The notes under the pieces were generated by a model. The model was not told the DNA's origin. It saw only the letters and a list, made by a program, of their open reading frames with translations, and made no database searches. Both the position numbers and the translations under genes were made by a program. Shown here in pieces: positions 4,973 to 30,783 of a stretch of 64,000 bases of DNA (position 1 is its first letter; each line of letters starts with the position of its first letter). Origin of the DNA: an uncultured virus (IMG/VR IMGVR_UViG_2657245422_000003) (Duplodnaviria; Heunggongvirae; Uroviricota; Caudoviricetes); IMG/VR virus record IMGVR_UViG_2657245422_000003, positions 1-64,000 of that record, one strand, 5' to 3'.

Positions 4973-5292
4973 AAAGTAAATTTTCCCTATCTTGGATATA
5001 TCTATTCTCATAGTGATGTCCTATCTCATGCCTGTAACGCCGGCCGGCGGAACGTTTAAACCTGCTGCGAATTCTTCTGGTCGTCATCTCATCCGGTGTT
5101 TCGTATGCCGCCGGCAGCTACTTCGTGGGCTTCCTGCCTCGATGACGTCATAGGACGCAGATAGTATTATCGATATAAACTACATCTGTCAATTAAAACT
5201 GATGATTTAAATTTCAGAATTGGATGTGAGGTGGGGAGCAGACACAAAAAAACCGCCCGAAGGCGGCGCTGATGAAGGGGGGGAAGGCTGTT

Positions 5293-5682
5293 CTAGTCTT
5301 TCTTTCGTTTCATTAAATACTCGTTCATGAAAGCATCGAGTTCTTCCAGCCTTAACTGCATTAACCCGACGAATCTTTCTTGCTCCACTTGCGGAAGCTG
5401 ATCGTAAATTTCTATGAGCTTTTTAGTCTCCGGGGTAAGGACGTAGATATCTTCCGATCTTGGCTGCTGCAGCGTCTCTTCGTCTTCATCTGTCATGAAA
5501 AACCAATACAACGGTTTTCCTGTTATATCAGGAAGTTGCTCAAGCATTTCTTTTCTGGGAAGGATTCCAGCCTGACACCAGCCATTCACTGATTGGGATG
5601 TCGCACCGATCCTCCGCCCCAGTTCTGATTGAGACATTCCTATCTCATCTAAGACTCGTTGCAGTCGAACACCAAAGTTCAT
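5293..5682 (-). CDS. cI: Prophage repressor, XRE HTH, no S24 autoprotease domain
   Basis: MSQSELGRRIGATSQSVNGW HTH; ~129 aa; divergent from cro-like gene. Confidence 0.85.
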   Translation of the reverse strand: MNFGVRLQRVLDEIGMSQSELGRRIGATSQSVNGWCQAGILPRKEMLEQLPDITGKPLYWFFMTDEDEETLQQPRSEDIYVLTPETKKLIEIYDQLPQVEQERFVGLMQLRLEELDAFMNEYLMKRKKD

Positions 5683-5742
5683 CTTCATCCACCCAAACAA
5701 ACACATGAGAAAGATTATACAGATTTTTTCTTCAGGCCTCAT

Positions 5743-5800
5743 ATCGAATGATTTGACACTATCGAAATAAACTGATTAAACTGTAATTCAAATTTACAGT
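5743..5800 (+). promoter_or_regulatory. pR/oR-like region
   Basis: TTGACA (5753-5758), 18 bp, TAAACT (5777-5782); ATCGAAATAAACTGAT resembles ATCGATATAAACTACA at 5169 in the pL-side intergenic. Confidence 0.5.
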
Positions 5801-5817
5801 TCTTAGTGGAGCAGCGC

Positions 5818-6039
5818 ATGAAGCCATCACTTCAAAAAAAATTACTTGCCGTGTGTAGCCAATCGGAAATCGGACGGCGGCTTAATCGGCGAGCACAAAC
5901 AGTAAATGGTTGGTTCAAACATAAAGTTCCCGGCGAGTTGGTTCTGAAAGTCAGTAAGGCATTGGAGTGGAAAGTTACTCCGCATGAACTCAGACCAGAT
6001 CTCTACCCAAACCCAACGGATGGATTACCGAAGGAGTAA
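5818..6039 (+). CDS. cro: Cro-like (YdaS-type) regulator
   Basis: SQSEIGRRLNRRAQTVNGW HTH; C-terminal VTPHELRPDLYP motif. Confidence 0.85.
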   Translation: MKPSLQKKLLAVCSQSEIGRRLNRRAQTVNGWFKHKVPGELVLKVSKALEWKVTPHELRPDLYPNPTDGLPKE

Positions 6040-6041
6040 GT

Positions 6042-6596
6042 ATGCAAACCATCTCTTTTAAAAATCATAACCCGGTAATGGGCCTGCAACTGAACTCAGA
6101 AAATCAGTTTTCCGGTCTACGCCGGGCTCGGATGAAGAGTAGAGCAATTTTTGCTGCCGTTCAGGAATGGGAGTCGACTTTACCTGGACGTGCACAGGAC
6201 CACATCGCGCAGCTGGTGGATGAGCAATGGAGAAAACAAAACGGTCGCGGAATTAACGTCAATAAACAGAATCTGTACCGCTACCTGAAAAACGAATCCG
6301 GATCAGAGAAGTACACCAGCTACGTCATGAAGCTTTCAGGAGCGATCGCTGATGCGATGCCTATTGAGATTGCGCGCAAACACGGATTGAAACGTGGATT
6401 GACTGAAAGCGAGCTGGTGGCTCATGCAATCAAAGAGTGTAGCGAAGCGCACCAGGCAAAATTGCTTGGCGCTCCGTTACAAAAGTTAGAGCGTGAAATT
6501 CGGGAGGCAGCAATTGCACTTTTTAACATGCTTCCTGCAGATGCGGCGGGACCACTACTGGCGAGCATAAGCGCCGTAGCGCCACAGTTTTTTTGA
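6042..6596 (+). CDS. CII-position regulator (YdaT-like)
   Basis: 184 aa directly after cro; KECSEAHQAKLLGAP...REIREA helical C-terminus. Confidence 0.65.
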   Translation: MQTISFKNHNPVMGLQLNSENQFSGLRRARMKSRAIFAAVQEWESTLPGRAQDHIAQLVDEQWRKQNGRGINVNKQNLYRYLKNESGSEKYTSYVMKLSGAIADAMPIEIARKHGLKRGLTESELVAHAIKECSEAHQAKLLGAPLQKLEREIREAAIALFNMLPADAAGPLLASISAVAPQFF

Positions 6597-6640
6597 TCGA
6601 GTTTTGACAATGAGTACCGTACAGAAAATAGGGGGGCTTC

Positions 6641-7660
6641 ATGAGCATTGACGCAATGCGATGGGCCAAAAAAATCAAGACAGGGAAGTCCTCTGCAAAA
6701 GCGGTTCTGACCTGGATGGCCGACATGTGCGGAGCTGATCTCTGTGCTTTTCCATCCATTCCTGCGCTGGCAGAAGCAACTGAGCTGGATAAGAAAACGG
6801 TCCAGTCGAGCCTGCAGTATCTGGTTTCGATCGGGCTTATTGAAGATACAGGTGAACGGCGTGGAAAGACTAAACAAATCCCGGTTTACCGACTTCTTGG
6901 TGTGGAAGAAAGCGTTGCTGAAATTGAACACACCCAAAAACGGGAACATTACCAAAAACGGGATCGTTTAAACACACCCGAAAACGGGGTTGTTACAGCA
7001 GAAAAGGCGCCCGAAAACGGGACTGTTTCCTGTACGCAAAACAACCAAACAATCCCGTTTTTTCCGTCAAACGATCCCAAAAACGGGATCCGGAATCTAC
7101 CAGAGGAACCAAAAGATATAACCCCCACACATAGGGTTCTGGTCGAACCAGTTGTGCCGGCCTATCCGAATCAACCGGGAATAGTTCCTGGTGAAACACA
7201 ATCATTCGGAAAATTTGCGATGTATTTCGGGTGGAAACCTTCCGAAGATTTTTCCCGGCTGGCAACGATTTGGGGAATGCCATTAAGACCGGGGATAAAT
7301 CTTGCTGCCGAGTTGAGCAGTTTCATCGCGTACTGGCAGGCTGAAGGCAGGGTGTTTCACCAGGTCCAGTGGGAGCAAAAACTAGCAAGACATCTTAACC
7401 GTGCGGAAGTCCGCCAGAAAAAACCAGTGAACGGGGGTATCGATCATGTGGGAGTACGAGCAGAGCCAGCAGCATCCAGAGCTGTTCAACAGATTCGAGC
7501 CGCCCGTGAGCAACGGTTGCGAGTTGCAGGATCAGATGGCCGTAGAAACGGCATGGCGCCTATGGGAAGTGATGGGCGAAATCTTTTCGAACCGGTGGAT
7601 CCTGAAGAACGGAGAGGAACCATCAGAACTCTGGATCGCTCAGATTGGATCGATGAGTGA
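6641..7660 (+). CDS. Replication initiator (O-position): N-terminal HTH plus DnaT-like domain
   Basis: [32 protein letters not shown]...FIAYWQAEG...QWEQKLA; contains iterons. Confidence 0.85.
6933..7088 (+). repeat. Phage origin iterons
   Basis: CC(A/G)AAAACGGG copies at 6933, 6951, 6977, 7010, 7076 and an inverted TCCCGTTTTT at 7053, inside the initiator gene as in lambda O. Confidence 0.8.
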
Positions 7661-8117
7661 AGCCCAGATTACGCTGGTTTGCCGGCAGTGCATGGAACGT
7701 TGCGCCGCGGGCAGCACATGGCCGCCGGATCTCGCTGAGTTCGTCGCGCTGGTATCTGCTAGCGGTGCTAACCCGTTCAATCTGACATCCGATGCAGTGA
7801 TGGCGGAGTACAAACGCTGGAGAAACGAGTCTTACCGATATTCGGGAAGCGACAAATACCCATGGAAACAGGATGTTCTGTATCACATTTGCATTGAGAT
7901 GCGCAGAACTGGAGTTGAGAGGAACCTGACGGAGGGAGAGCTGAAAAAAATGGCAGAAAACTTACTCACGAAATGGACCAAGCACCTGGCTAACGGGTTT
8001 TCGATTCCGCCAATTCGTCAGCAGTTGGCAGCACCGAGACATCCAGCGGGACCGACGCCAGCACAGATTCTGATGGAAGAGTACAAACGCCGAAAGGCGG
8101 CAGGTTTAACCAAGTAA
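7536..8117 (+). CDS. Replication protein, P-position (start uncertain)
   Basis: Overlaps initiator end; WPPDLAEF motif; alternative starts 7446/7572/7653. Confidence 0.65.
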
Positions 8118-8130
8118 ACGAGTTTTGACC

Positions 8131-8571
8131 ATGGCCAAACAATCAAAAAACAAAGTAACCAAAGCACAGATGGTGCTTGCCATCGTTAGCCGGACGCCAG
8201 AATGCGTCCTGCAGGATGTTTGCGATGCGCTGGACTTGCAAGCCAGTACAGCAGGTAACTTGCTACGGCAGCTACATGCCGAAGGAAAACTCAATCGTAC
8301 CCATAACGGCTGCCAGTATGTCTACCGGGTTGTTGCAGGCGTTGAGGTTACCGATGTTGCCCTGCCGCAGGCTACAATACAATTATCTGAAGAGGATGTG
8401 AAAAAAATCCAGGAAGCACTGTCCCTGGCTAAGACCCTGGAAGACAAAAAGCTGTGGCGCCGGGCTGCGACTGTTTACACATCGACGCTTGGGATGGCTA
8501 CAACAGCAAACGAACTCTGGTTGCTTGCCAAAATGCGTAACCGCTGCCTGCGCAATGCGGCGAAGTGCTGA
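8131..8571 (+). CDS. HTH plus PerC-like protein
   Basis: C-terminal AKTLEDKKLWRRAATVY...RNRCL resembles PerC family. Confidence 0.65.
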   Translation: MAKQSKNKVTKAQMVLAIVSRTPECVLQDVCDALDLQASTAGNLLRQLHAEGKLNRTHNGCQYVYRVVAGVEVTDVALPQATIQLSEEDVKKIQEALSLAKTLEDKKLWRRAATVYTSTLGMATTANELWLLAKMRNRCLRNAAKC

Positions 8572-8653
8572 TTATGCCTAAAATGGAATCAACAGCAGCT
8601 GGTGCGGGATGTCAAAGCTAAGTTTAAATATTCCGGGGTGAGGCAAAGCTGAG

Positions 8654-8682
8654 ATGTCCGCTGAGTGCCAGAAGCTGACGTT
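8654..8682. repeat. Hairpin repeat, B orientation
   Basis: ATGTCCGCT-GAGTGCCAGA-AGCTGAC-GTT. Confidence 0.75.
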
Positions 8683-9118
8683 GCAACAATGTCTGTTGAC
8701 GATTTCTGCTGGCTCTACGCAAATGTGAAGCAGCGAAAACCAAAAATCATCGGTCGTATTGGTGCATTAAAGTTGATGTTGCTGTGCTGTCCAGTAAGTT
8801 AACTGAAGTAAGATCTTATCAGTCAACACAAGCGAACCTGTTTGAGCAATACCAATGAAAGTGTTTATTACGCGCATTAATTCAATCTTGCATCCACCAG
8901 TTAGAGATCGATGATTTAATTTGTAAAAGGAGGAATACATGATTAAAGACTAAATAAATGAGTCTATTCAGTAGGTTAGCTTTTTTATGACTAATCGATA
9001 AGTTAGCTGGCGTATAATAACGGAAGTAAAAAGTCACCACGTTTTTATGAAATAAGAATCATCTTAATTTATTGGATTTTTGCTTTTAAAAAAGTTATAA
9101 AAGGTCATACCCCCTTAA

Positions 9119-11140
9119 ATGAAGATGGAAAAAATGGCTGAATCGATAAATGTCTATCCGGGTAAACATACTTCTGTTAGAGAAGACCATTTTAGTCACC
9201 AAGAGAGAGATATAATTAATGTGTTGTCGAAAGAATTTTACGTTACGAACGGTGGAGGGATAATAACACTAACATCAAACAGTAAGTATAAATATATACT
9301 TTTACGCCCGACCGATATTTACATAGAAATGTTTAACCTCGATAGAGAGGTAATAGTTCTCTTTAGCGACTATACAAACTTCCAATCACGTACACTGGAT
9401 GCTTTTGAGCAGGCAGCGAAACAACTCTCATCTTTGAGAGTTGATAAAACCTGTTATATTTTGATAAGTAAAGATCTAAACATAGAAGAGAACATTAGTG
9501 AACTTATCAAAAAGGAGCCTGAAACAGCAAATATAGTTCCCTTCACATATGATGAAACGCAAAAAGCAAATTCCGATGGTTACTTTTTTAGAAACAGAGT
9601 TCAGAAATATTTATATAATCGAGATCTTTTTTCATTTGAAGCACCGTTGAAAAGTGATTGGCTTTTCTTCGGAAGAAATGAGATTATATTATCTACTATT
9701 AATCGCATGAAGGGGGGGAATAATTCTGGCATTTTCGGGCTGCGAAAAACTGGAAAAACGTCATTAATTAATGCCATATCCAGAAATCTACAAAAAAATG
9801 GTGAAATTGTTACAACCATAGACTGTCAAAGTCCATCTGTTAATAAAAGAAAATGGAACGAGGCTATCTATTATGTATGCAAGAAAACGAAAGACGATAA
9901 CTATCTTCAATCTTATCTTCCAGAAGAAATTGAATTTACTGAGAAGAATTCTGCTGACATTTTAGCGAAATTCGTCAGAGATGTTAATAATGAAAGAGGG
10001 AAGAAGTTATTTTTGATTTTCGATGAAATTGAGAATATTTCTAGAATTACATCTCCAACAGAACACTGGAGTAAAGGTTCTGATTTTCTTTATTTTTGGC
10101 AAACAATGAGAACAGTTTTTCAGACTGTAGGTATAAATTTAGCGTATTTGATTGTTGGCACAAATCCTTCATGCATAGAAACGCCTAGAATAGATAGTTC
10201 TGATAATCCACTGTTTAATCATTTCACGCCTACTTATCTTCCAGGTTTTGACATTCGCTCTACAAGAGACATGATAAGAAGAATCGGGAAAAGAATGGGG
10301 GTGAATTTTGAGGAAGCAATATATACAAATATCAACGAAGAATATGGTGGTCATCCGTTTCTTATTCGTCAAGTTTGTAGCATAATTGCAAGAAGGACTT
10401 TTAGTCAAAAAAAACCTATCAGCATAGGTAAGATTTCTTACAGGGATGCTGTAAAAGATTTTGGAGAAAATAGTTTTAATTACTTAGAAATGATTATAGG
10501 TGTGTTAAAAGAACACTATAGTGAGGAATATGAACTTCTCATTACTCTAGCAAATGAAGATAACGAAATTTTTAAAGAGAACTCTAGCAAAAAACAAAAT
10601 TCATTGGCACATCTTTTGGGTTACGGTATTTTAGGAAAAGATAACGATAGCTATTACTTTATCATTGATTCCATGAGGCGTTATCTGTTGGAAATAAACA
10701 AATACAGGAAAGTTGAAACAAATATAGAACAACGGTGGGCTGAAATATCTGAAAGACGAAATGCAGTTGAAAAAAAACTAAGAACAATAATAAAAACAAC
10801 TTTAAAGTCGATGTATGGAGAACAATTAGCGAAAGATGCAGTGCTTGACATATTGGGTAAACAAAGAAAACATGAATATATTTCTAAATCTATTAATGAG
10901 ATTTTTGACCCAAATTTATCTACAATTTACTTCGAAGATTTAAGGAAAATAATATCCAAAGAGTGGGGGTCATTTGAGAATATATTTGAAACCTCAAAAA
11001 AAGAAACTTTCGAGTCCCTGGGCTTTATAAATAAATATAGGTCAGATGCTCATGCTAAAGACATAACGCCTGATGAGTTTACTATATTCAGGCTTAGTAT
11101 TGAAAAGATTGAGAATGATATAGCGCGATATTTTTCCTAA
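9119..11140 (+). CDS. STAND-like P-loop ATPase with C-terminal Swt1/HEPN-like domain; candidate anti-phage protein
   Basis: FFGR, Walker A GLRKTGKTS, Walker B LFLIFDEIE, GGHPFLIR; C-terminal YFEDLRKII..EW..F..IF...YRSDAH; AT-rich. Confidence 0.75.
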   Translation: MKMEKMAESINVYPGKHTSVREDHFSHQERDIINVLSKEFYVTNGGGIITLTSNSKYKYILLRPTDIYIEMFNLDREVIVLFSDYTNFQSRTLDAFEQAAKQLSSLRVDKTCYILISKDLNIEENISELIKKEPETANIVPFTYDETQKANSDGYFFRNRVQKYLYNRDLFSFEAPLKSDWLFFGRNEIILSTINRMKGGNNSGIFGLRKTGKTSLINAISRNLQKNGEIVTTIDCQSPSVNKRKWNEAIYYVCKKTKDDNYLQSYLPEEIEFTEKNSADILAKFVRDVNNERGKKLFLIFDEIENISRITSPTEHWSKGSDFLYFWQTMRTVFQTVGINLAYLIVGTNPSCIETPRIDSSDNPLFNHFTPTYLPGFDIRSTRDMIRRIGKRMGVNFEEAIYTNINEEYGGHPFLIRQVCSIIARRTFSQKKPISIGKISYRDAVKDFGENSFNYLEMIIGVLKEHYSEEYELLITLANEDNEIFKENSSKKQNSLAHLLGYGILGKDNDSYYFIIDSMRRYLLEINKYRKVETNIEQRWAEISERRNAVEKKLRTIIKTTLKSMYGEQLAKDAVLDILGKQRKHEYISKSINEIFDPNLSTIYFEDLRKIISKEWGSFENIFETSKKETFESLGFINKYRSDAHAKDITPDEFTIFRLSIEKIENDIARYFS

Positions 11141-11146
11141 AGCCGA

Positions 11147-11177
11147 CCCCTTTTTTTGATTTTTAAAAAAAAGGGGG
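11147..11177 (+). terminator. Hairpin after the ATPase gene
   Basis: CCCCTTTTTTT...AAAAAAAGGGG inverted repeat just after stop. Confidence 0.5.
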
Positions 11178-11288
11178 CATACCTGATAGTCAATAAATTC
11201 TTTATGATTTTTCTACAGCTTTAACAATTTTAATTATAAATAAACTTCAACTTACATATAAATATCTATTGTTGCTTATTGATTTAGT

Positions 11289-11317
11289 ATGATCGCTCTG
11301 TGCCAATTGCAGACGTT
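11289..11317. repeat. Hairpin repeat, B orientation (degenerate)
   Basis: ATGATCGCT-CTGTGCCAAT-TGCAGAC-GTT. Confidence 0.65.
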
Positions 11318-11541
11318 GTTGCACTGCAAAAATATCTTGTCCGGATCAAGGTATCGCCACCACTTGTTAGGTGGATTAATCCGTATTTATAACAAATACA
11401 ATTCCCGGCTGTACCTATAAGCTGTTGTCAGTTATACAAAAGCGATGTAGTGTTCCACACATTAAATTTACAAACGTGGAAAAGTCCGTGTTTAGATACA
11501 GATTTTTCCGCTGAATAACCGCATATTTCCAAAGGTTTATC

Positions 11542-12507
11542 ATGAGTAAGTGGCTATTAGACAGGCTATTTGAAGCCGGTGATCAGGCAGAGCCCCGGTT
11601 TGCGTTTCAGGGGACTGTAAATTGGATGAGGGCCCTTGCCGAAGTCGTTAACGGTGGCGCTTGTTCCGATGATAAACTAAATGATTTATATGCTCGGGTA
11701 CAACGTAGACCTGTCAATCGTGAAGCTGATACGCTTGTGTTTGAGAACACAATGATGGCCTTACATAATCTGTCATCTTTGAAAAGTATGAATAAAGATG
11801 TCGAAGATAAATATGACATATGTCGTTCAGCTATTATTTCTTGGTATTACAGTATCTATTTTTCCGCTAGCGCGATGGTTGCAGCATCTTCTGGTTCTAT
11901 TCAAGAGACACATACAGCCACAGCAAAAGTTTGGCAGTCAGATATCGCGGAAAAAGAACTTATCCCATATCCATTTAATCTTCTTCTAACTAGTTTAGTT
12001 TCAAACACTGCTGATGCCGAGATTGCTGCATATAGAGGTGCTAACCGTTTCGACCTGAATGATAGAGCTTATGATAATGAAACTGCTCATGGTGCACTGG
12101 TTTCCTATCTAAAGGGGACTCATGGCTACAAAAAGTTGGAAACAGAAGAGAGGGTGAGAACTTCTCGTGATTTCAAAGCTCTTGGTGTTGACAACTTTCG
12201 CACGAAAGCTGCTCGCAAAGTTCGCGATCACGCACTAGAAAAAGGACAAGTTAATTTCCTTATTCAGGCGTTTAGATACCGTGGTAAAGCGAACTATCGT
12301 GACTCTATATTTTTATCCTACGGTGACAACAACGAAGCTATTATAGAAGAATTTATCCAAGATTTGTATGACGTCGCTATTGGCTTCATTAGGGCTACTT
12401 CGCATTATTGCAGTCGAAGAGTCGAGAGAGGTACGTGGGCTGAGTTTGTCGAGGATATTTCTGATAACTCAAGGTTGTCTATTGACTCTGTCGTGCTTGA
12501 AATATAA
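11542..12507 (+). CDS. HEPN-like protein, probable former integron cassette gene
   Basis: AIISWYYSIYFSASAM and YRGKANY resemble the two halves of a HEPN domain; stop codon lies in the attC R'' box. Confidence 0.6.
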   Translation: MSKWLLDRLFEAGDQAEPRFAFQGTVNWMRALAEVVNGGACSDDKLNDLYARVQRRPVNREADTLVFENTMMALHNLSSLKSMNKDVEDKYDICRSAIISWYYSIYFSASAMVAASSGSIQETHTATAKVWQSDIAEKELIPYPFNLLLTSLVSNTADAEIAAYRGANRFDLNDRAYDNETAHGALVSYLKGTHGYKKLETEERVRTSRDFKALGVDNFRTKAARKVRDHALEKGQVNFLIQAFRYRGKANYRDSIFLSYGDNNEAIIEEFIQDLYDVAIGFIRATSHYCSRRVERGTWAEFVEDISDNSRLSIDSVVLEI

Positions 12508-12627
12508 CAAACAATTTAAGAATGGCTCAGCACGCTTGGCATTTTCAGTTTGGTTCAAATTTAGTGATTAAGGTATTCAAATTGAGTATGGTGAATACGT
12601 GCTTCACACTTTAATTGGGCGTTAATG
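12502..12627 (+). other. Integron attC-like site (Vibrio-repeat type, 126 bp)
   Basis: ATATAAC (12502) ... CAATTTAAG pairing with TTTAATTG, AGCACG (12529) with CGTGCT (12598) ... GGGC-GTTAATG (12621). Confidence 0.8.
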
Positions 12628-12695
12628 CCCGCTTTTCGCTCACCGCGGACCTTTAGCGCAGTGAGCTTGTCCGCTCAGTGCCAGGAGCAGATGTT
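12625..12695. repeat. Inverted hairpin pair A+B
   Basis: GCCCGCT-TTTCGCTCAC-CGCGGAC (12627) and GTCCGCT-CAGTGCCAGG-AGCAGAT (12669), 42 bp apart. Confidence 0.8.
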
Positions 12696-12787
12696 GCTAT
12701 GTTGTGGTGCGTTAATCAAGCGTACGGCCAAGAAAAATGCGGGAAGAAAAAGGCCGCTAATGCGACCCAAATTGAACAAGAAGTCAG

Positions 12788-13960
12788 CTATTGATATTGA
12801 GAAAGATACTCTGCAACTCCATTCGCCGGATTTAGTCCACCGGTATAGACTGTTCCTAGTTCTTGAGGCGTAACATATGTGGTAGGCCATATAACCATAT
12901 CTTTAAAATAGTTATCTATTTTAATTCTTGTGAGCTCTTTAAAAAGATAATCATCTAATTCATTTCGTTTTAAACAATTAACATAATAAGCTGCCGCACT
13001 TGCTACTATATCTGCGATTTGTAGTTGAGGATATTCTTGCGATGAATGGAATGTCAAAGAGCGAGCTTTAATTGGTAACTCAAAAGTCCTTCTATCATAT
13101 CCATATACCTCCGTAATTTTTGACATATCCATAAATTTATTAAAAATATCTTGTTGTTCTGTAATCGCTTTGGAATCGTCATGCTTAATATAAAAACCGT
13201 TGGGATATAATTTACCCCATTCTATACAGTGCTTGAAGAGAGAGGGTATGGAAGGATCTAGTGTATTTTTTTCAACATCTTCTAGAATGTCATCAATTTC
13301 ATTTTTGGTAATGCTAATTCTATTGATTGTGTCTACAAACCTTTGGTCGCTTGAACATGCCTTTAGCTCATCAACTGACGTGTAAAATTCATCAATAGAT
13401 TCAGGGGTTTGATTTCTAATCATGCTCATAAATTTTTGATACATTTTATCTGTTTTCTCCTCTCCACAGAAAGCTGGAAAACAGAAATAATAAACATTAG
13501 ATAGAGCAAGATTCTGCCCATTTTTATAAAGATCTAACCCTCGATTGAAACACCATGCTTCGATTAAAATATCAACAATTTTTGTTGTTAACATATACTT
13601 TTTATCGACCAAAAAGATTTTGACATTTTCTTCATTGACGTACTTGCTTTCAAGAAGTCTAATAATTCCATCCTGGCCTGATTTTCTACGTCTAAGAGTT
13701 TTAAAGTGAGCTTCTGCTGGTGACTTGCTTCCAGTTAGCTCTAATGCTTTAAGTGCGTCTGGTTTATTAATGCTACTTGAACTTAAGGTGAAAAAAGGTT
13801 GTGTTGAATCAAGTAAATTTCCGCCGGTATTACCCGACTCATCAAAGAATATATCAGGTTTTATGTACATCATTTTATTTTTCTTTGCAGTTAACTCTCT
13901 TATTTTTTCGTTTTTCTGCTTTTTCTTATTCACGCGTCTACTTTGACTATTCTTACCCAT
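12788..13960 (-). CDS. DUF3800-like (RNase H-like fold) protein
   Basis: IFFDESGNTG near the N-terminus, LQIADIVA near the C-terminus; AGGAGG RBS; AT-rich. Confidence 0.75.
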   Translation of the reverse strand: MGKNSQSRRVNKKKQKNEKIRELTAKKNKMMYIKPDIFFDESGNTGGNLLDSTQPFFTLSSSSINKPDALKALELTGSKSPAEAHFKTLRRRKSGQDGIIRLLESKYVNEENVKIFLVDKKYMLTTKIVDILIEAWCFNRGLDLYKNGQNLALSNVYYFCFPAFCGEEKTDKMYQKFMSMIRNQTPESIDEFYTSVDELKACSSDQRFVDTINRISITKNEIDDILEDVEKNTLDPSIPSLFKHCIEWGKLYPNGFYIKHDDSKAITEQQDIFNKFMDMSKITEVYGYDRRTFELPIKARSLTFHSSQEYPQLQIADIVASAAAYYVNCLKRNELDDYLFKELTRIKIDNYFKDMVIWPTTYVTPQELGTVYTGGLNPANGVAEYLSQYQ

Positions 13961-14105
13961 AATACCTCCTGATTAATTTGGAACAAGAATGTTAATTTAA
14001 GGCATTAATAACATAGAGGTGATAATATCACTTAATACAAGTTTAATTCTATATTTTACATCAAGCTTGACTCACTATTTTTTTGATAAGAGTAAAATAG
14101 TGAGG

Positions 14106-14176
14106 ATGTCCGCAATTCGCTCGAAGCAGACCTTCATCCCATTCAGATTGTCCGCTCTGTGCCAAGAGCGGAATCT
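14106..14176. repeat. Inverted hairpin pair A+B
   Basis: GTCCGCA-ATTCGCTCGA-AGCAGAC (14108) and GTCCGCT-CTGTGCCAAG-AGCGGAA (14150), 42 bp apart. Confidence 0.8.
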
Positions 14177-14347
14177 GGAACGCCAGAGGTAGCAACGTTT
14201 CTTATCAAAGGTGTTGATCACCACAAAAATGACTGTATCCCTATGATAGCGGATTTCGTCCTTTATGGAGAAAAGATCAATCTAAACATGAGCATGGGTT
14301 AGCGAAAAGTGGCATTAAACGCTTGAACATTTCACCTAACAAGTATA

Positions 14348-14363
14348 CTGTTTATTTATACAG
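14348..14363. promoter_or_regulatory. LexA (SOS) box
   Basis: TA-CTGTTTATTTATACAG-TA, CTG-N10-CAG, just upstream of dinI-like gene. Confidence 0.9.
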
Positions 14364-14384
14364 TACTTGCGTGAGGAGCTAGTT

Positions 14385-14618
14385 ATGAAAGTGGAAATCA
14401 CAATTGATCGCCAAAAAAAATTGCCGGATGACGCTGTGCCTGCTCTGGAGAAGGAGCTACTGCGGCGATTGGATCAACACTTTAATAACTGCAGTCTTGT
14501 GATTCGTCGGGCCAGCTCTGATAGGTTGACCGTGCTTGGTGGAATGGACGGAGATAAAAAACGTGTAGAGGAAATCCTGCAGGACACCTGGGAAAGCGCT
14601 GATGACTGGTTCTGTTAA
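14385..14618 (+). CDS. dinI: DinI-family protein
   Basis: MKVEITID...ALEKELLRRL...VEEILQDTWESADDWF; GAGGAG RBS. Confidence 0.9.
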   Translation: MKVEITIDRQKKLPDDAVPALEKELLRRLDQHFNNCSLVIRRASSDRLTVLGGMDGDKKRVEEILQDTWESADDWFC

Positions 14619-14662
14619 GTTGAGGTCCAGTAGCTTGCCTGGTTTATTTTGAGGATTTTGCT

Positions 14663-14920
14663 GTGAGTAAAAAACAAGAAATGCCGAACACCGGCTATGC
14701 AATTATCAGATGCGACGATGGGGTGATCGTTGCTCGTCTTACATCCTTTCCTGTGTGTGAGCGCGCTTTAATGTACCGGCGCGGCGACACTGTTTCGTTT
14801 ATGCCTTTGCAGCCGGATGAGATCGTGGGGACTCTCTCTCTTTTTTCACAGATGATTGAAAAGGCTAAGTCTGGAGTTGGTTACCAGGTTCCCCCTGGTT
14901 CTGTTACAATCCCGTCATAG
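14663..14920 (+). CDS. Hypothetical protein, antirepressor candidate
   Basis: 85 aa; second gene of the SOS-boxed operon; function from position only. Confidence 0.5.
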   Translation: MSKKQEMPNTGYAIIRCDDGVIVARLTSFPVCERALMYRRGDTVSFMPLQPDEIVGTLSLFSQMIEKAKSGVGYQVPPGSVTIPS

Positions 14921-14960
14921 GCCTGAACAACCTATACCTGCTGCGTCGCGGAGAGAAACC

Positions 14961-15353
14961 ATGACGCAAACCCCCGAAGTATCAAAACCCCATCAGACTG
15001 GTGCTCCTTCATCGAGCGCCGGTTTGCTTTCGTGTTCAAAACTAACTTTTCGACAGCAGGAAGTTTTCGATCTGCTGGTGGCCTACATCAATCAGCATGG
15101 CTACCCACCTACGCTATCTGAGCTGGCCGATATGCTCGGCGTTAGCTCGTCTAATGCTGTCCTGTTGCATCTGCGTGCGTTAGAGAGAAAAAATTTTATA
15201 AAACTCTCTCGCCGTGTCTCCAGAGGAATTTCCATCGTCGGGCGAAAGGAGCCTATGCTCGCCGTGCAGCTGCTGCAGGAAATGATCGCTGAAGAACCCG
15301 GCGCGCGTGAAAGAGCGATTGAGTTTTTGCGACTGTTCGGTGATCAGCCATGA
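14961..15353 (+). CDS. LexA N-terminal DNA-binding-domain protein (no peptidase domain)
   Basis: LTFRQQEVFDLL...GYPPTLSELADMLGVSSSNAVLLHLRALERK...SRGI. Confidence 0.85.
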   Translation: MTQTPEVSKPHQTGAPSSSAGLLSCSKLTFRQQEVFDLLVAYINQHGYPPTLSELADMLGVSSSNAVLLHLRALERKNFIKLSRRVSRGISIVGRKEPMLAVQLLQEMIAEEPGARERAIEFLRLFGDQP

Positions 15354-15553
15354 AGAAAAGTTGGTTTTTACACGAGCAACTTTCAGAGGCTGAGGCTACA
15401 GAGCTGGTGGAGCGATACCGTAAAAATAACTGTGTGGTTGAGAAGAGCTTGTCCAGAGACTTTGCATCGTGGGAGATCCGCGTGTTGTTGCCGGAATCGA
15501 AGAAGCCGCCACGGATTGACAGGACCTACATACAGAAGATGTGGAGGGACTGA
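15350..15553 (+). CDS. Small prophage hypothetical protein
   Basis: 67 aa, overlapping start/stop with both neighbours. Confidence 0.65.
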   Translation: MKKSWFLHEQLSEAEATELVERYRKNNCVVEKSLSRDFASWEIRVLLPESKKPPRIDRTYIQKMWRD

Positions 15554-16584
15554 TGCGAGCTTTGCTTAACGTGGATATTGCACGCCATCTTGGAATTGTG
15601 CTGCTTAAGCCGGGTAGTGAATTAATGCCGTTATTCGGTGCCGGCCGAGTTCTTGTTGAAATACCGCCGGCAAGCATGAAAAAGATACCCAGTGGACGTC
15701 TTCCTGATGCCCGGCAGCCATTGCGGGATGATATAGGGATCAGACCTTTTTTCATGAAGAAGGCAGTTATCACTGCAGCTGGTGGGGTTAGTGCCCTCGA
15801 GTCATGGTTGCGTAGGCAGGTTAAAAACTGTCAGTGGACACATTCCGATTACCATCACCATGAGCTCGTCCCGTTTCGCCATTCGACGGGTGTAATAATC
15901 GCATGCTGGCACTGTGATAATGAGCTGAAAAACCAAACGGAACAAACCCTCGATCAACTGGTAGGTGTTAATAACGCTGACTGGGTAATCGACACTGCCC
16001 GCATCGCGCTTGGCCTGGACGCTCAGCGGGCACTGTCACTGGCAGAGTTATGCTGGTGGGCGGTAGGCGCCGGGATTGGCGATGAAATTACAGAAGAAAT
16101 GGCGCGCCGATCCCTGCGTATTAAAGACGATGGGATTAAATCGGTTTACAGGGAGAGTGAGATTGTTCCGTCGGTACCGGCCACCAGCATTCTTTCTCCC
16201 CGTCTCGAAAAAGCAATCAGGCCAACGGCAAAAACAACGCCGGGCAAACCTCTGGTTCCTGTGAACGTCGATCCTGTTGCACCGGCGACACTATTCGCGA
16301 GACCTAAGCGGAGCCGATGGTTATCAGCTGACTTTATCTCATGGGTTAAAAAACAGCCGTGTATGTGCTGTGGGCAGCCTGCAGATGATGCACATCATCT
16401 TATTGGCTGGGGGCAGGGCGGCGTAGGCACCAAGGCCCACGATATTTTTACGATCCCATTATGCCGCAAGCACCACCGCACTTTGCACCATGACCCTGCC
16501 GCTTTTGAGCGTGAATACGGCACCCAGCCGGTATTAATTATTAAATTGCTGGACCGGGCATACGCGCTCGGCGTTCTGGCGTAG
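15553..16584 (+). CDS. DUF968 (YdfU-like) protein with C-terminal HNH-like zinc motif
   Basis: CWHCD; PCMCCG..ADDAHH...KAHD..TIPLCRKHH..LH. Confidence 0.8.
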   Translation: MRALLNVDIARHLGIVLLKPGSELMPLFGAGRVLVEIPPASMKKIPSGRLPDARQPLRDDIGIRPFFMKKAVITAAGGVSALESWLRRQVKNCQWTHSDYHHHELVPFRHSTGVIIACWHCDNELKNQTEQTLDQLVGVNNADWVIDTARIALGLDAQRALSLAELCWWAVGAGIGDEITEEMARRSLRIKDDGIKSVYRESEIVPSVPATSILSPRLEKAIRPTAKTTPGKPLVPVNVDPVAPATLFARPKRSRWLSADFISWVKKQPCMCCGQPADDAHHLIGWGQGGVGTKAHDIFTIPLCRKHHRTLHHDPAAFEREYGTQPVLIIKLLDRAYALGVLA

Positions 16585-23900: not shown

Positions 23901-25136
23901 ATGGCTGCAGAAAATAAACTTAGTGATAGGCAACTAAAAGCGCTACAGGGTAAATCGCAGACTAAGCAGCGGTTGATTTCAGACGGTCGCGGAATGTCGG
24001 CGAGAGTTAGCAAGAATGGGGCTGTGAGCTTTGTGATGTTCTACCGCTTGGGCGGTAGGGATACTTCCCCAATATGGCTGACGCTGGGCAAGTATCCTGC
24101 TATGTCATTGAAAATGGCACGAGATAAACGTGATGAATGTAGGGCTTGGCTTGCTGAAGGGATCGACCCACGTCACCGGATCGGCTTAATCACTGATGTG
24201 TCGGAAAGGCCAGTTACCGTAAAAGATGCGCTTGATTATTGGTTAGAGTATTACGCCAAGCCTAAGCGCAGAACTTGGGAGGTCTGTGAACAACGGTTTG
24301 CCCGATACATTTATGGTCGCCTGGGGGATGTACCTCTAACCCTGTGTAATGCAGCAATGTGGGTAAAGTGTTTTGATGAAGTGAGAAAAACAGCTCCGGT
24401 AGCTGCTGGTCATACATTCCGAGACGTAAAACAGGCGCTCAAGTTTTGCCGGGTACGCCGTTATGCTATCTCCAGCGAACTGGATGATTTTACCGTTATG
24501 GATATGGGGGAAAGGGCGCAAAAAAGGGATCGTGTACTCACAGCTGATGAAGTGCGGGACGTTTGGTATTGGGCGAATACTGAGGAAAACAATACCAAAT
24601 TATCACCAGTTAACAGGGTGACACTTGTCATAATGATCGTATTCGGTTGCCGTGGACGTGAATTGCGGGAGTCGCTCTGGAATGAATGGGACTTTAAAGA
24701 GTGGATTTGGACAGTGCCCAAAGAACACAGTAAGAATGGGCGCGAAATTATTCGCCCAATCCCCCCGCAAATCCGTCAATGGCTTGTAAACCTTCGTGCA
24801 ATTGCAGAGGAGGAGGGTACCGAGCGCCTACTTAATGGTGAATTTTCAAAACAGACAGTTATGAGCACGGTTGGTAGCCGTTTTTGGCGTAAGTTTAGGC
24901 ATGAAAAATCATGGTGCCTGCATGACCTTCGTAGAGTTCTTGCAACCAATCTAAATGACATGGGGGTTGATCCCCACGTTGTCGAACAGCTCTTGGGACA
25001 TACGCTACCGGGGGTTATGGGAATTTACAATCGTAGCCAATATCTGGCCGCAAAACATGATGCACTGACGAGATGGGTAGACTACCTGAATTCGTTGATC
25101 CGTTCAGATGCTAAGGAGGAAAGTTCCAATGTATAA
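23901..25136 (+). CDS. int: P4-like tyrosine integrase (satellite)
   Basis: DGRGM...LTLGKYPAMSL arm domain; FGCR, HDLRR, LLGH, YNRSQY. Confidence 0.95.
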   Translation: MAAENKLSDRQLKALQGKSQTKQRLISDGRGMSARVSKNGAVSFVMFYRLGGRDTSPIWLTLGKYPAMSLKMARDKRDECRAWLAEGIDPRHRIGLITDVSERPVTVKDALDYWLEYYAKPKRRTWEVCEQRFARYIYGRLGDVPLTLCNAAMWVKCFDEVRKTAPVAAGHTFRDVKQALKFCRVRRYAISSELDDFTVMDMGERAQKRDRVLTADEVRDVWYWANTEENNTKLSPVNRVTLVIMIVFGCRGRELRESLWNEWDFKEWIWTVPKEHSKNGREIIRPIPPQIRQWLVNLRAIAEEEGTERLLNGEFSKQTVMSTVGSRFWRKFRHEKSWCLHDLRRVLATNLNDMGVDPHVVEQLLGHTLPGVMGIYNRSQYLAAKHDALTRWVDYLNSLIRSDAKEESSNV

Positions 25137-25347
25137 ATTCATGAGTAAAGCAGAACTTGAACTGATACCAGATCTGGAACGTGTTATCCGAGAACAGGAA
25201 TGTTTTTGGATGACTGGTCTACCAAAATCTACTCGTGCTTTTATGGAGAAAAAGGGACAGTTTCCAAAGCATCTTGTGCTGGGCCCTAAAATTTGTGCTT
25301 GGCGACTCTCTGAAGTGCAAGAATGGATAAAGACCAGGGCACAGTAA
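25129..25347 (+). CDS. alpA: AlpA-family regulator/excisionase
   Basis: TGLPKST...KKGQFPK..LG...AWRLSEVQEWI. Confidence 0.85.
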   Translation: MYKFMSKAELELIPDLERVIREQECFWMTGLPKSTRAFMEKKGQFPKHLVLGPKICAWRLSEVQEWIKTRAQ

Positions 25348-25367
25348 ACCGACACTTTTCAAATCAC

Positions 25368-25393
25368 ACCCGCTTCTTCAGGCGGGTTTTTTT
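25368..25393 (+). terminator. Intrinsic terminator between the alpA genes
   Basis: ACCCGC...GCGGGT followed by T-run. Confidence 0.65.
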
Positions 25394-25409
25394 ATAGGAT
25401 TTTCTGCTG

Positions 25410-25649
25410 ATGAAAAAATTTATTGAACCAACCCCAGAGGAACGCCGGCAGTTACTAAACGAGTACGGTGTTCCATACGACCGTATTGTTCGTGAGAAAG
25501 AGCGTCGTGAGATTACTTCGCTTTGTAGATCGTCAGCGTGGGAGATGGAGCAGAATGAAGCATACCCGCAGCGACGCAAAATTGGTAAAGCAGGTGCAGG
25601 TTGGCTTCTTAGTGACCTGCTTTTCTGGCTAAGAACTCTTGAGAGGTAA
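25410..25649 (+). CDS. alpA: Second AlpA-family protein
   Basis: RIVREKERREITSLCRSSAWEME...YPQRRKIG...GWLLSDL. Confidence 0.8.
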   Translation: MKKFIEPTPEERRQLLNEYGVPYDRIVREKERREITSLCRSSAWEMEQNEAYPQRRKIGKAGAGWLLSDLLFWLRTLER

Positions 25650-25967
25650 TTTCTAGATGTTAAACCTTCAACCTACTGTAATTTATGAAGAAAAGGTGAA
25701 GGACTTCCAGTGAAAGATTGATCATCATGAAAAAATGGCAGTTGTTGATAAGGATGGTCTGGAGTAAATTATTACATTGATCGCTTTCTTTGTAAGAGAC
25801 ACTGTTTGGATTTAATCGCTCTGGCGAACAGAACTCGTTGGAAGGTAGTCAAAGTTTGAAAAAGGTTAAACTTGGTACTTCTGGTGTTGCATAAATCCTT
25901 TCTGAAATCCAAGTGTGGATAAAGGGGAGGAATAAAGTTTATTTAGACTTATTCGGGTGGGTAATAA

Positions 25968-26726
25968 ATGGACTATATAACTGAAGGCGTTTTAGATAAA
26001 GTAATTAATGATTTAACTTATAGAGCTAATAAAGCCAGAAAAGCAAGATTTTTAATCGGTGGTTCGATTATCCTCATTGCAACCATGCTTTCTGGGTTCA
26101 TCACTTATAGATTAACTGCTAATCAATCAGATAGTAGCCTTGCTAATACATTCATGGCTTTTAGAGATCGTTTAGTTGTCAGTGAAGATGGTGGTTTGAG
26201 AGGATTTATTAACAAAGAATTAGGCCAGGTTTATGAGAGTGAAAAAGATGTAGTTCGTTTGCGAGTAGAGAACGAAAGTTCAATACCATCTGAAAAAAAC
26301 AAAATTAACAATGACGGGAATGGTAGGCAGATCACACAAACCACTAATAAGAAAGAGGCTCTGGATAATGCAAGTAGGTTGGTTGATTTTTACACAAAAG
26401 TGGTTGCGGCGAATAACGGTAAACCAATAAATAAAACGGATGATACTTATAGTAATTTAATAAGCTCCATAGCATTATCTGCAGGTATTGTAGGTTTTCT
26501 ACTCTATATACTTCAGATTGCTGTAAGTTTTATAAGATATTATTCTAGGCTTGCAGAGTTGTATGACTCACAAAAAACAGCTTTAATTGCTTCTGATGGT
26601 AATGTCGAATCCGCAGAGATTTTAATGAAGATATTATCTAATGACCATATTGGATTAGGGAAGGAACCTACTACCTTATATGGAAAAGCATTAGATGTGA
26701 TTGGTGAGGTAGCGAAGTCAAAATAA
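25968..26726 (+). CDS. AT-rich membrane protein (satellite cargo)
   Basis: 252 aa with two hydrophobic segments (FLIGGSIILIATMLSGFI; IALSAGIVGFLLYILQIAVSFI). Confidence 0.7.
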   Translation: MDYITEGVLDKVINDLTYRANKARKARFLIGGSIILIATMLSGFITYRLTANQSDSSLANTFMAFRDRLVVSEDGGLRGFINKELGQVYESEKDVVRLRVENESSIPSEKNKINNDGNGRQITQTTNKKEALDNASRLVDFYTKVVAANNGKPINKTDDTYSNLISSIALSAGIVGFLLYILQIAVSFIRYYSRLAELYDSQKTALIASDGNVESAEILMKILSNDHIGLGKEPTTLYGKALDVIGEVAKSK

Positions 26727-27141
26727 GATTTATTAAAAGGCGCGTTTTTAATGCGCCCTTCTATATTTATTGAGAATGAAAAACGAATTAATTTAATGAT
26801 GGTTTTATTTTATGGCGTATAATAGGGTTTTATTACTCAAGGCTTTCATATATAGCTTGTAGATAAATGTATGTCTGTGCCGTACTTTGAAATATGAGTA
26901 ACTGCATTTCGGGATTGCTCTTTCCTACTCCTATGAGTTGGGGGGTATAGACTGTGTAATATATTAGTGATCCGCGCAATTCGGTGTCGACATGAAATAT
27001 TGCATTCTCCCGCTTCACGATTGCGCGTCATGATGAAATCTACTGGTTCATATAGCACTGTCAGTATACAAGCATTCATGCTACCGCTGCTTTGGGAGAA
27101 AAATCGTATTTTATTATCACTTTCCTTGTAAAGAATGAGAA

Positions 27142-28350: not shown

Positions 28351-30149
28351 AAAATGCACCTAACGTAAAGGCGCTGCCGAAAGACAAGTTTACAGAAGCG
28401 ATTATTTTCGCGGGTGCCGACGCGTGGAGTCATGCCAAAGGCTGGGAAGAGGGGTTAGGTAAGCAGATCGCGGAAGATACCACGCCTCCTGTTTATCTTG
28501 GCCCGCGGCAACTGGAGGAACTGGACAACCTGCGCATTATCGATGATGGCCGCAGAGCTGCGCGGGTATATCTGGCTGGCGATATCGAGACGTCGATGAT
28601 TAGTGCCATTGGTGCCAAACTGGCACTGGCTGGGGTACAGGAGGCAAAACTTTATAAGAGTATTCCCGATACTCATCCGGAGGACTGGCGCGATCATCTT
28701 AATCGGATTAGGGAAGGAAAAAGCACAGTAGTAAATCTGCCAGTGACGAAAAGAGAACCAGCGCATGATGAAGTTAGCCCGGCTCTTAATCAGATGGGGG
28801 CCAGCCAGCGCGGGCAAGTGCTGCTGGCCCATTACGATGGAGACCTGGCTATTCATGCTGATTCGGACATGGTTCACCACTATAACGGTGTGATCTGGAA
28901 TCCACTCCCGGATAAAGAGCTGCAACGGGCAATGGCGCAGATTTACATTGATGCTGAGGTAGCCTATTCGCAGAACGCCATCAAATCGGCGGTGGAAACC
29001 ATGAAGCTGAGTCTGCCGGTGATGGGCGTAACAGCCCGCAACCTCATTGGCTTCAGCAACGGCGTATTTGATACCCGGACGGGGCAGTTCAGGGAGCACA
29101 GCAAAACCGACTGGTTGTTGATTGCCAGTGAACTGCCATTCAGTCCACCAACTGAGGGGGAGACACTGGCCAGCCATGCGCCGAACTTCTGGAAGTGGTT
29201 ACGCCGTTCCGTGGCCAACAACGACCGCAAAACAGACCGTGTGCTGGCGGCGCTATTTATGGTGCTTGCGAACCGGTACGACTGGCAGCTGTTCCTTGAG
29301 GTTACGGGCCCCGGCGGTAGCGGTAAAAGTGTGATGGCGGAAATATGCACCATGCTTGCGGGCAAGGCCAATACTGTATCAGCCAGCATGAAAGCGCTGG
29401 AGGATGCCAGAGATAGAGCGCTGGTGGTTGGGTACTCACTTATCATCATGCCGGATATGACCCGCTATGCTGGCGATGGCGCCGGGATTAAGGCAATTAC
29501 CGGCGGTGACAAGGTTTCTATCGATCCTAAGCATAAAGCGCCATATTCAACCCGTATTCAGGCTGTGGTGCTGGCGGTCAACAACAATGCAATGACCTTC
29601 AGCGACCGGAGTGGTGGGATATCGCGCCGCCGAGTTATATTCAACTTCACGGAAATAGTTCCGGAAAACGAGCGCGATACGATGTTGGCTGAAAAGATAG
29701 AAGGTGAGCTGGCCGTCATCATTCGCCATCTGCTGACCCGTTTTGCAAGCCAGGACGAAGCCAAACAGCTGCTGCACGAACAGCAGAAGTCAGAAGAAGC
29801 ACTGGCTATCAAGCGAGAAGGGGATTCGCTGGTGGATTTCTGCGGTTATCTGATGGCGTCGGTAGTTTGCGATGGAATGTTTATCGGCAATGCGGAGATT
29901 GTGCCATTCAACCCGCGCAAATATTTGTATCACGCCTATCTGGCTTACATGCGAGCCAATGGCCTGAGTAAGCCGGTTTCTCTGATGCGGTTTGGAACCG
30001 ATATGCCAGGCGCAATGGCTGAGTACGGCAAGGATTACCTAAAGCGCAAGACCAAACATGGTATACGTTCCAATGTAACTCTGCATGACGATTCAGAAGA
30101 CTGGATGCCATCATGTAATAGTATATCTGCAAGTGGTGCGGTAGAGTAA
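28347..30149 (+). CDS. P4-type primase/SF3 helicase replication protein
   Basis: IGFSNGVFD (D5_N-like), Walker A GPGGSGKS, IKAITGGD, SRRRVIFNF, C-terminal winged helix. Confidence 0.9.
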   Translation: MKNAPNVKALPKDKFTEAIIFAGADAWSHAKGWEEGLGKQIAEDTTPPVYLGPRQLEELDNLRIIDDGRRAARVYLAGDIETSMISAIGAKLALAGVQEAKLYKSIPDTHPEDWRDHLNRIREGKSTVVNLPVTKREPAHDEVSPALNQMGASQRGQVLLAHYDGDLAIHADSDMVHHYNGVIWNPLPDKELQRAMAQIYIDAEVAYSQNAIKSAVETMKLSLPVMGVTARNLIGFSNGVFDTRTGQFREHSKTDWLLIASELPFSPPTEGETLASHAPNFWKWLRRSVANNDRKTDRVLAALFMVLANRYDWQLFLEVTGPGGSGKSVMAEICTMLAGKANTVSASMKALEDARDRALVVGYSLIIMPDMTRYAGDGAGIKAITGGDKVSIDPKHKAPYSTRIQAVVLAVNNNAMTFSDRSGGISRRRVIFNFTEIVPENERDTMLAEKIEGELAVIIRHLLTRFASQDEAKQLLHEQQKSEEALAIKREGDSLVDFCGYLMASVVCDGMFIGNAEIVPFNPRKYLYHAYLAYMRANGLSKPVSLMRFGTDMPGAMAEYGKDYLKRKTKHGIRSNVTLHDDSEDWMPSCNSISASGAVE

Positions 30150-30159
30150 ATTTATTGAT

Positions 30160-30395
30160 AAAGTGTTCACCACTATTCATCATGGTAAAAAGTCCTTTTA
30201 TTACATGTCATTAGATGGTGAACATTTCTTTGTGAAGTATTCATCAGGTATTCACCTGTTCATCTTTTGCTTGTTTTATGTTCTAAAAGGTGAAGGGGGG
30301 AAGTGAACACTTGTGAATACTTAAAAGTGAGGTGTTCACCGCTTAACTTAATGAATTTTAACGATAAAAAGATAAGGGTGAACGGGTGAATACTT
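30160..30395. repeat. Satellite origin iterons
   Basis: About ten GTGAA(C/T)A / (G/A)TTCAC copies in both orientations in AT-rich DNA after the primase gene, similar to P4 GGTGAACA iterons. Confidence 0.75.
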
Positions 30396-30441
30396 AAGCA
30401 TATAATATTTATATTAAATTTCATTTGCTACGGAGTATTGG

Positions 30442-30783
30442 ATGCAACGGCTTATTGAAATCAAAGAGCGTCTGGGTGTCATCGAAAGGTATCTTGATAT
30501 ACAGGCCCCGTTTTACAAACGAGATCTTAATATCTCAACTTTAATCACTGATCTAAAGGACCGTGTAGAGAGAAACCATAAATGGTTACAGCGCCAGAAA
30601 TATCAAGGTATGTTAACTGAGTTTGAATCAATATTTATTGAGCCCGCAATTAATGATATTTATCTATCTTCGATAGTTAATCTTAAACGAGGCGTAAAGC
30701 CAAGTGATACAGTAAGTAATTATATATCTGAATCCTTATCCACTGTTGACTATTGGATTTCACATATTCCTAATAATCAATGA
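30442..30783 (+). CDS. Hypothetical protein (satellite cargo)
   Basis: 113 aa, GGAG RBS, AT-rich. Confidence 0.65.
   Translation: MQRLIEIKERLGVIERYLDIQAPFYKRDLNISTLITDLKDRVERNHKWLQRQKYQGMLTEFESIFIEPAINDIYLSSIVNLKRGVKPSDTVSNYISESLSTVDYWISHIPNNQ

Follow-up and report, generated by a model that had tools for sequence, protein, structure and literature searches.

The window analysed here is the first 64 kb (64,000 nucleotides) of a virus record of 71,058 bp. According to the window annotation, lambdoid repressor, replication, Q-like and endolysin genes surround the locus. For positions 5200-8700, the closest relatives among phages infect Klebsiella (84.7% over 49%) and Citrobacter, which suggests that the host is enterobacterial. 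The region 9000-14000 is AT-rich (GC 0.31-0.41) and contains three genes with short palindromic sites between them, at 8656, 11291, 12625/12669 and 14106/14150. The original prediction had called the neighbouring repeats hairpins; the sites are real, but they fold no better than shuffled sequences, and palindromic sites is the better name. We regard 8656-14173 as a host hotspot of three site-bounded units between the replication genes and dinI of the lambdoid prophage. The first unit carries an ATPase gene (9119-11140), the second is the subject of this report, and the third carries a DUF3800 gene on the minus strand (12788-13960) and is opened by the next left-type site at 12669-12692. This site and all the parts of the middle unit described below are on the plus strand.

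The products of the two neighbouring units, an AAA/STAND-like ATPase (weak matches below the cut-off) and a DUF3800 protein, are both defence-like. Further low-GC islands (0.34-0.42) are found in this prophage at 25000-27000 and 30000-32000. A 26-bp inverted match of 77% was also noted between the attC/right-site junction (12619-12644) and 14297-14322 upstream of dinI, and it is possibly due to chance. An Rfam search returned no match within 8000-16000.

The middle unit contains a 321-aa gene (11542-12507), which runs into an attC site at 12502-12627. The R'' box of this attC is at 12502-12508, the R' box is at 12621-12627, the crossover lies between G12621 and T12622, and the R''-L''-variable region-L'-R' layout with the AAC/GTT core is present. 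It had been predicted that the TAA stop of the gene lies in an R''-like ATATAAC box, that this box opens a 126-bp element ending with GGGC-GTTAATG, and that R' overlaps the start of the adjacent repeat. All of this agreed with our results, as the open reading frame ends inside the box, the end of the element at 12627 was confirmed, and the repeat starts from 12625. The length and end layout had been assigned to the Vibrio type. A home-made covariance model, built from five other Vibrio attC sites, matched the bottom strand of 12502-12627 with 97.6 bits (E about 2e-21, a rough value). This was its sole match in the 64-kb window, so that the proposed attC-model check, carried out with our own covariance model over the whole window, pointed to the single site. 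A box-pattern attC scan of the contig was loose and yielded chance matches. In the bottom strand, the R and L boxes are paired with an extrahelical A, as in the relatives, and the bottom-strand folding that had been anticipated was therefore observed. Under a loose folding constraint, the pairing probability of R plus outer L was 0.8, compared with 0.33-0.38 in four reference sites. One inner L-box pair is mismatched relative to the intact relatives L118 and L050. The folding energy was no better than that of shuffles (z 0.14 for the bottom strand and -0.68 for the top strand), so the attC is recognised by its architecture and homology and not by its stability. On these grounds, we conclude that 12502-12627 is a true Vibrio-type attC. 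A tblastn search of the whole contig (71,058 bp) with an E limit of 10 found no IntI, as expected from the earlier claim that the prophage lacks an integrase.

The start of the cassette had been placed at GTTATAC (11431), which matches the complement of R'' at six of seven positions. This start is about 90 bp too early. Identity to the intact cassettes (L003, L005, L049, L050, L118) begins at 11523, so the cassette DNA begins at about 11522. In the intact copies, GTTATAT, which is complementary to R'', opens the cassette 19 bp ahead of the ATG, and the equivalent position in the window is 11521-11527, where GTT is missing. The start complementary to R'' is thus lost in the window and kept in the intact relatives L003, L005, L050 and L118. 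The GTTATAC at 11431-11437 falls in the 17-bp spacer of a conserved TTGTNN-17-TARTGT pair. Eight 6/7 matches of this kind lie within the AT-rich island of 5.3 kb, and the G at 11431 is missing from one public copy.

The gene plus attC (11523-12624) align with the Vibrio europaeus plasmid pVEu at 91.2% DNA identity, and the gene is one cassette of an attC array there. It confirms the expectation that homologues reside in Vibrionaceae integron arrays. The closest intact copies are in two metagenome contigs (L049/L050, 96.4%), followed by Pseudoalteromonas (L003, 91.5%) and Vibrio (91.2%), and the 90% protein cluster includes members from V. cholerae, V. parahaemolyticus and V. vulnificus. An exact match between a GTTNNNN start and R'' was seen in 22 of 69 distinct homologue loci (full-length, under 97% identity and with enough flank), compared with 1 of 69 in a control window. 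It suggests that the gene family is a widespread cassette cargo.

Other arrangements of the gene were also observed. In L050 (4700-5003), the closest intact copy (96.4%) follows another kind of attI-like region, which contains an inverted repeat, and no IntI match was found at this locus. In Pseudoalteromonas (L003:4982-6084), the cassette stands alone between two housekeeping-like genes with its start and attC intact, and it looks like a true secondary-site insertion. A Providencia locus (L013:5000-5442) has a 98% gene fragment, whose homology stops at both ends, with the right cut just after the attC start. In Photobacterium and Vibrio pectenicida (L004/L005), the gene is followed by a common second gene with only a short attC remnant, which is likely a fused two-gene cassette.

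The AlphaFold2 model of the 321-aa protein was confident and all-helical, with a pLDDT of 91.3. The best structural matches were HEPN domains with Z scores of 10.4, 8.9 and 8.7; values below about 13 call for caution with helical bundles and may be generic. The top match had a Z of 10.4, an rmsd of 2.9 and 126 of 126 target residues aligned, and four of the top five titles name HEPN. Foldseek returned nothing, a PDB sequence search returned nothing significant, and no match for the gene was obtained in Pfam, PADLOC, NCBIfam or PHROGs. A HEPN profile matched 1 of the 72 alignment members (E 0.046), and the Atlas gave only unnamed clusters. The protein has 767 relatives; among the matches listed, 3 of 120 are named as UPF0332 family. 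In the aligned sequences, Y102-Y103 is invariant, H124 is present in 71/72, and R247-x4-Y252 in 72/72. The catalytic motif of HEPN RNases is R-x4-6-H, and most HEPN RNases have His, while the cassette protein has Tyr (Y252) at this position. The codon differences from marine copies are mostly synonymous (50 synonymous and 22 non-synonymous, 39 and 15), less so from L050 (17 and 12). Compared with three enterobacterial copies, the window gene has 1-2 synonymous and 4-5 non-synonymous codon differences, with no sign of selection. We predict that the cassette protein, which is modelled as a HEPN fold with insertions, belongs to the HEPN-fold proteins. Its fold, its hotspot position and the HEPN cassettes reported by Darracq et al. 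suggest that it may act as an anti-phage RNase.

Upstream of the cassette there is a leader (11315-11521), for which a profile was built only from the window, L123 and L125. In 8 of 30 intI loci, this profile matched the stretch that separates intI from the first cassette (E 9e-12 to 3e-23), and intI itself is absent from the window locus. The other 22 intI loci gave no leader match, and most of them show other attI types. Two of the eight leader-matched IntI proteins pass TIGR02249 and are labelled Arsukibacterium. Comparison with paralogues placed attI at 11465-11528, with a decayed crossover at 11521/11522. The window attI core agrees with the attI of a complete integron (L256) at 49/57 columns, and GTT at the crossover is absent in 27 of 27 locus records of the unit, duplicates included. 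A hexamer pair at 11425-11453 (TTGTCA-17 bp-TAGTGT) is a candidate Pc. The TTGTNN-17-TARTGT/TAATCT pair with its 17-bp spacing was kept in 16 of the 16 paralogues checked. Since the hexamers and spacing are kept while the spacer sequence varies, we infer that this pair is a likely Pc; a consensus promoter scan found none at 11425-11453. A degenerate remnant, weak and aligned by eye, lies at 11324-11339 near the position of the CTGT-N8-ACAG box, which we take to be the LexA-type motif of the intI promoter. Paralogues of 11304-11516 with 75-81% identity precede other genes in Providencia plasmids and in E. coli. In one RNA run, the gene-body contig had a depth of 14-39 and the leader and attC about 5, and such contigs cannot show transcription. 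Judging from these alignments, the ~220-bp upstream DNA is the intI-to-attI region, with a likely Pc and a decayed attI, of one Arsukibacterium-labelled clade of chromosomal integrons.

It had been proposed that a stranded Vibrio cassette sits in an enterobacterial phage. A true cassette with a Vibrio-type attC is indeed present, but it is not bare, as an attI/Pc leader of an Arsukibacterium-labelled clade precedes it. In its plainest form, this proposal is a SALIN, namely a bare Vibrio superintegron cassette beginning at 11431 and inserted by IntI at a chance site. The Vibrio-type attC and the protein cluster with V. cholerae, V. parahaemolyticus and V. vulnificus members are in its favour. 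However, the cassette homology starts at 11523, the upstream DNA is the attI leader, and the same block ends are found in non-phage contexts. The version starting at 11431 is refuted by the true start, the leader and the shared block ends, and we consider a plain SALIN highly improbable.

Paralogous platforms with a homologous leader were found elsewhere, also without the integrase. The paralogue in G360 (L221/L223) heads an array of at least five attC cassettes without intI. With this paralogue as the query, 31 of 61 genomes showed 1-12 leader matches, mostly ending at the crossover. The integron-integrase search gave matches in 27 of 37 leader-bearing genomes, while no match to IntI was obtained at E 1e-60 in the G360, G932 and G945 assemblies. 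Likewise, no IntI was detected in 32 leader loci (about 3 kb), 24 longer stretches or 7 more. GTT is present at the crossover in 26 of 31 intI-less leader loci, and in 14 of the 20 leader loci where a downstream attC was detected, the crossover matches the R'' of this attC at 7/7 positions. On the evidence of these junctions, the integrase-less platforms are loaded like real attI sites. In 11 of 31 intI-less leaders, a left half-site lies upstream of the crossover at a distance of 242-247 bp, roughly the point at which intI would start, compared with 1.7% of random windows and 0 of 8 complete integrons.

The longer stretches of intI-less loci contain arrays of 1 to about 10 attC sites. The full layout consists of a left site, attI, 1 to 5+ cassettes and a last attC that runs into the right site, without intI. 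At least eight units with different cargo show it (the window, L125/L290, L311, L309, L223, L230, L337 and L339; the attC sites of L125 and L339 were read by eye), and partial or decayed layouts were found in L298, L306, L341, L342/L343 and L127/L292. In many intI-less arrays, the right site was absent from the stretch examined. An empty unit, with attI directly on the right site, was found neither in viral contigs nor among 20 matches in 37 genomes. Among sampled genomes, the leader was found in only 3 of 401 from the order, one being a marginal 32-bp match, and in none of 251 from the family of G003; of 300 sampled from the class, one carried a paralogous leader. A viral pattern scan gave 92 loci, mostly by chance, with L196 and L171 as new leader-bearing loci.

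Several variants of these platforms were also seen. Genomes related to G360 (loci L223, which is G360:C4, L296, L299, L301, L304 and others) have up to 12 scattered leader matches, and tandem leader matches occur at L296 and L339. Between left and right sites, a shortened leader is found together with the gene for an Mrr-like nuclease in L126, L127 and L171, and with a different gene in L292. In L127, an E. coli P2-like prophage, the shortened-leader unit adjoins the retron Ec67 gene at a P2 hotspot. A Providencia IncC plasmid (L123:4001-5460) harbors a decayed leader, a PIN-domain gene and a truncated attC-like sequence beside umuDC.

The window unit is bounded by two different 24-bp palindromic sites. 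The left site, of the TGCCA type, is at 11291-11314; the left end of the unit lies inside it, and copies are constant from about 11300. The right site, of the CGCTC type, is at 12627-12650, with the right end of the unit inside it and constancy to 12642. Both site types also flank fun(Z) of P2, and we assume that these are the repeats of Nilsson et al. 2004. The 1.35-kb unit of leader plus cassette, from 11294/5 to 12634-12653, is about 99% identical between copies, which were found in Silvania (L002), E. coli, 12 Klebsiella and 2 Pantoea plasmids and many contigs. It was present in 41 of 5,426 E. coli genomes, of which 40 were listed; these share their ends, and most of them are probably clones. 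In four Klebsiella plasmids (matches H48-H51), the unit is interrupted by IS3-/IS5-like elements. The unit occurs with 15 different flanks on the left and 15 on the right, two of the latter being nearly identical. Only the right neighbour of the window is found again in L001, and only the left one in L039. In the public runs, breaks occurred at 11294/5 in 4/4 and at 12642 in 3/4. The ends of the unit recur unchanged in many phages, plasmids and chromosomes that are otherwise unrelated, which suggests that a second, non-integron recombination system likely packs up integron cassettes and carries them into enterobacteria. A 200-aa tyrosine recombinase lies beside the unit in L122, beside the leader in L126, where the gene is annotated with an internal stop, and 4.4 kb away in L311. 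This recombinase (P0121) is absent from the 71,058-bp contig and is near only these three leader-bearing loci.

The absence of the small recombinase from the contig would fit another explanation, in which the integron part stands but the second system is passive. The blocks would then be exchanged at phage hotspots through homology or micro-homology between short conserved repeats, or by Xer-type enzymes of the host, with no dedicated recombinase. It is also in favour of this explanation that the flanking hosts are mobile elements rich in hotspots. Against it, the breakpoints fall in the same few bases at the site centres in 15 contexts with unrelated flanks, and the shared match is only about 24 bp, which is short for RecA-type exchange. 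We therefore regard passive exchange as rather improbable. The leader is homologous to intI-attI spacers, its intI-less paralogues head different arrays, and the same ends recur in unrelated hosts. Taken together, it is probable that 11295-12642 is an integrase-less mini-integron, consisting of attI, a likely Pc and one cassette between 24-bp sites, and that it is likely moving as a block.

TTAATG stands directly before the right site in 24 of 24 attC-bearing unit records, duplicates included. In the original prediction, this abutment was taken as a sign that the two systems are mechanistically linked. The abutment is not due to chance but systematic, because at least eight intI-less units show this layout; it gives no indication that either IntI or the second system works on the sites of the other. 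A proposal close to that earlier idea is that the right-site edge (GTTRAT) serves IntI as a favoured secondary target of the attG type, so that whole blocks of attI plus cassette dock repeatedly and the two systems are coupled in each event. The junction letters vary among units (TTAATG, TTGATG, TTAACG, TTAATA and TTACTG), and no attC was detected upstream of the GTT-preceded right sites L286, L289 and L291, both of which would agree with such targeting. Insertion by IntI at non-att genomic sites is also described in the accessible part of Loot et al. (10.1101/2022.09.11.507474). However, attG-type targeting leaves the fixed distance of 242-247 bp from the left site to attI unexplained. Moreover, among the 29 distinct right sites, GTT is lacking at 17, and the remaining 12 were mostly retrieved with patterns containing GTT or through leader searches. 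We presume that coupling of this kind is unlikely.

The abutment is best read as a displaced 3' half of attI and not as joint catalysis, because cassette insertion in the proposed founder would move this half downstream. In the founder event, the promoter-attI stretch of an Arsukibacterium-type integron, without its intI, would have become enclosed by a left and a right site, and the 3' half of attI (TTAATG) would have been fused to the right site. IntI acting in trans would then insert cassettes at G / TT, pushing TTAATG and the right site behind the last attC. One copy may have acquired the marine HEPN cassette with its Vibrio-type attC. A second recombinase, likely the 200-aa tyrosine recombinase, would have moved the block to hotspots of enterobacterial prophages, phage-plasmids and islands. 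Finally, decay of attI would freeze the block as a promoter-plus-gene module, likely for anti-phage defence through the predicted HEPN RNase. It seems that no further cassette was added in the copies of the unit, as GTT is lost in 27/27 and the TTAATG-right site junction is kept in 24/24. The link between the two systems is most simply explained by an attI packaged between two palindromic sites.

These units offer a testable origin for some isolated cassettes, in which attI and a promoter are packaged between two short recombination sites. By this means, promoterless cassettes of aquatic chromosomal integrons could reach mobile elements of E. coli, Klebsiella and Pantoea already expressed, with no need for IntI1 or for a class 1 integron. 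Both recombination steps are open to direct assay, as the ends are defined and intact paralogues exist in nature. The cargo, with its 767 relatives, represents a widespread family of predicted HEPN fold that has no name as yet and is a candidate for defence. We also consider a wider capture in two tiers, for which our judgement is evenly balanced. In this scheme, the second system would have taken over the attI-Pc platform and scattered it through the genomes of aquatic gammaproteobacteria, each with as many as about a dozen integrase-less docking sites. IntI would load these in trans, and the loaded blocks would be exported to hotspots of enterobacterial prophages, phage-plasmids and islands. 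If true, this would connect the cassette pools of chromosomal integrons with phage defence hotspots by a defined route, and it would explain how many small CALINs and SALINs arise.

Nilsson et al. 2004 reportedly described inverted-repeat-flanked variable loci of P2-like coliphages in the fun(Z) region. The P2 fun(Z) locus has the same left and right site types as the unit, whose breakpoints lie inside them. However, that locus carries a simple gene, while the cargo of the unit is an integron platform with attI, Pc and a cassette. In integron mobilisation units, MITE-flanked class 1 integrons and the pdif modules of Acinetobacter, short terminal elements mobilise an integron piece or site-bounded modules with the enzyme in trans. 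The ends of the present unit differ from these, being 24-bp hybrid sites broken at the centre and not long terminal repeats. In addition, unlike integron mobilisation units and MITE-flanked class 1 integrons, the unit derives from a non-class-1 chromosomal integron with intI excluded. Compared with complete integrons, its attI is homologous to the attI of eight of them, with a decayed crossover, and intI is missing.

Isolated attC cassettes without an integrase (SALIN/CALIN) are known, and the accessible part of Loot et al. (10.1101/2022.09.11.507474) proposes their origin by attG insertion or by loss of intI and not by attI packaging. A SALIN is defined as a single attC with no integrase and no other att site nearby. 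The unit has a single attC without a nearby integrase, and an IntegronFinder-type search would likely call it a SALIN, but an attI remnant lies directly upstream. It also differs from SALINs and CALINs in keeping attI and a likely Pc, in having two non-integron end sites and in moving as a defined block. In the accessible text of Qi et al. (2023, PMC9892861), attC and attI parts were reported in temperate phages, including one Shewanella prophage CALIN with its own attI. Those cases, as presented there, are single findings in individual phages, while the unit recurs with the same ends in phages, plasmids and chromosomes. Further background is given in the accessible parts of PMC12690207 and PMC3091744.

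As for the cargo, the part of Darracq et al. (10.1101/2024.07.02.601686) available to us documented single-gene HEPN or HEPN-like anti-phage cassettes in sedentary chromosomal integrons, such as Esos and Taranis. Those cassettes act in defence; the protein of the unit resembles a single-gene HEPN-fold cassette, with a predicted defence role. A search of mostly open-access literature found no description of attI leaders bounded by such 24-bp sites. Isolated cassettes and integron parts in phages are known features, and what appears to be new is the packaging of attI as a recurrent, site-bounded unit.
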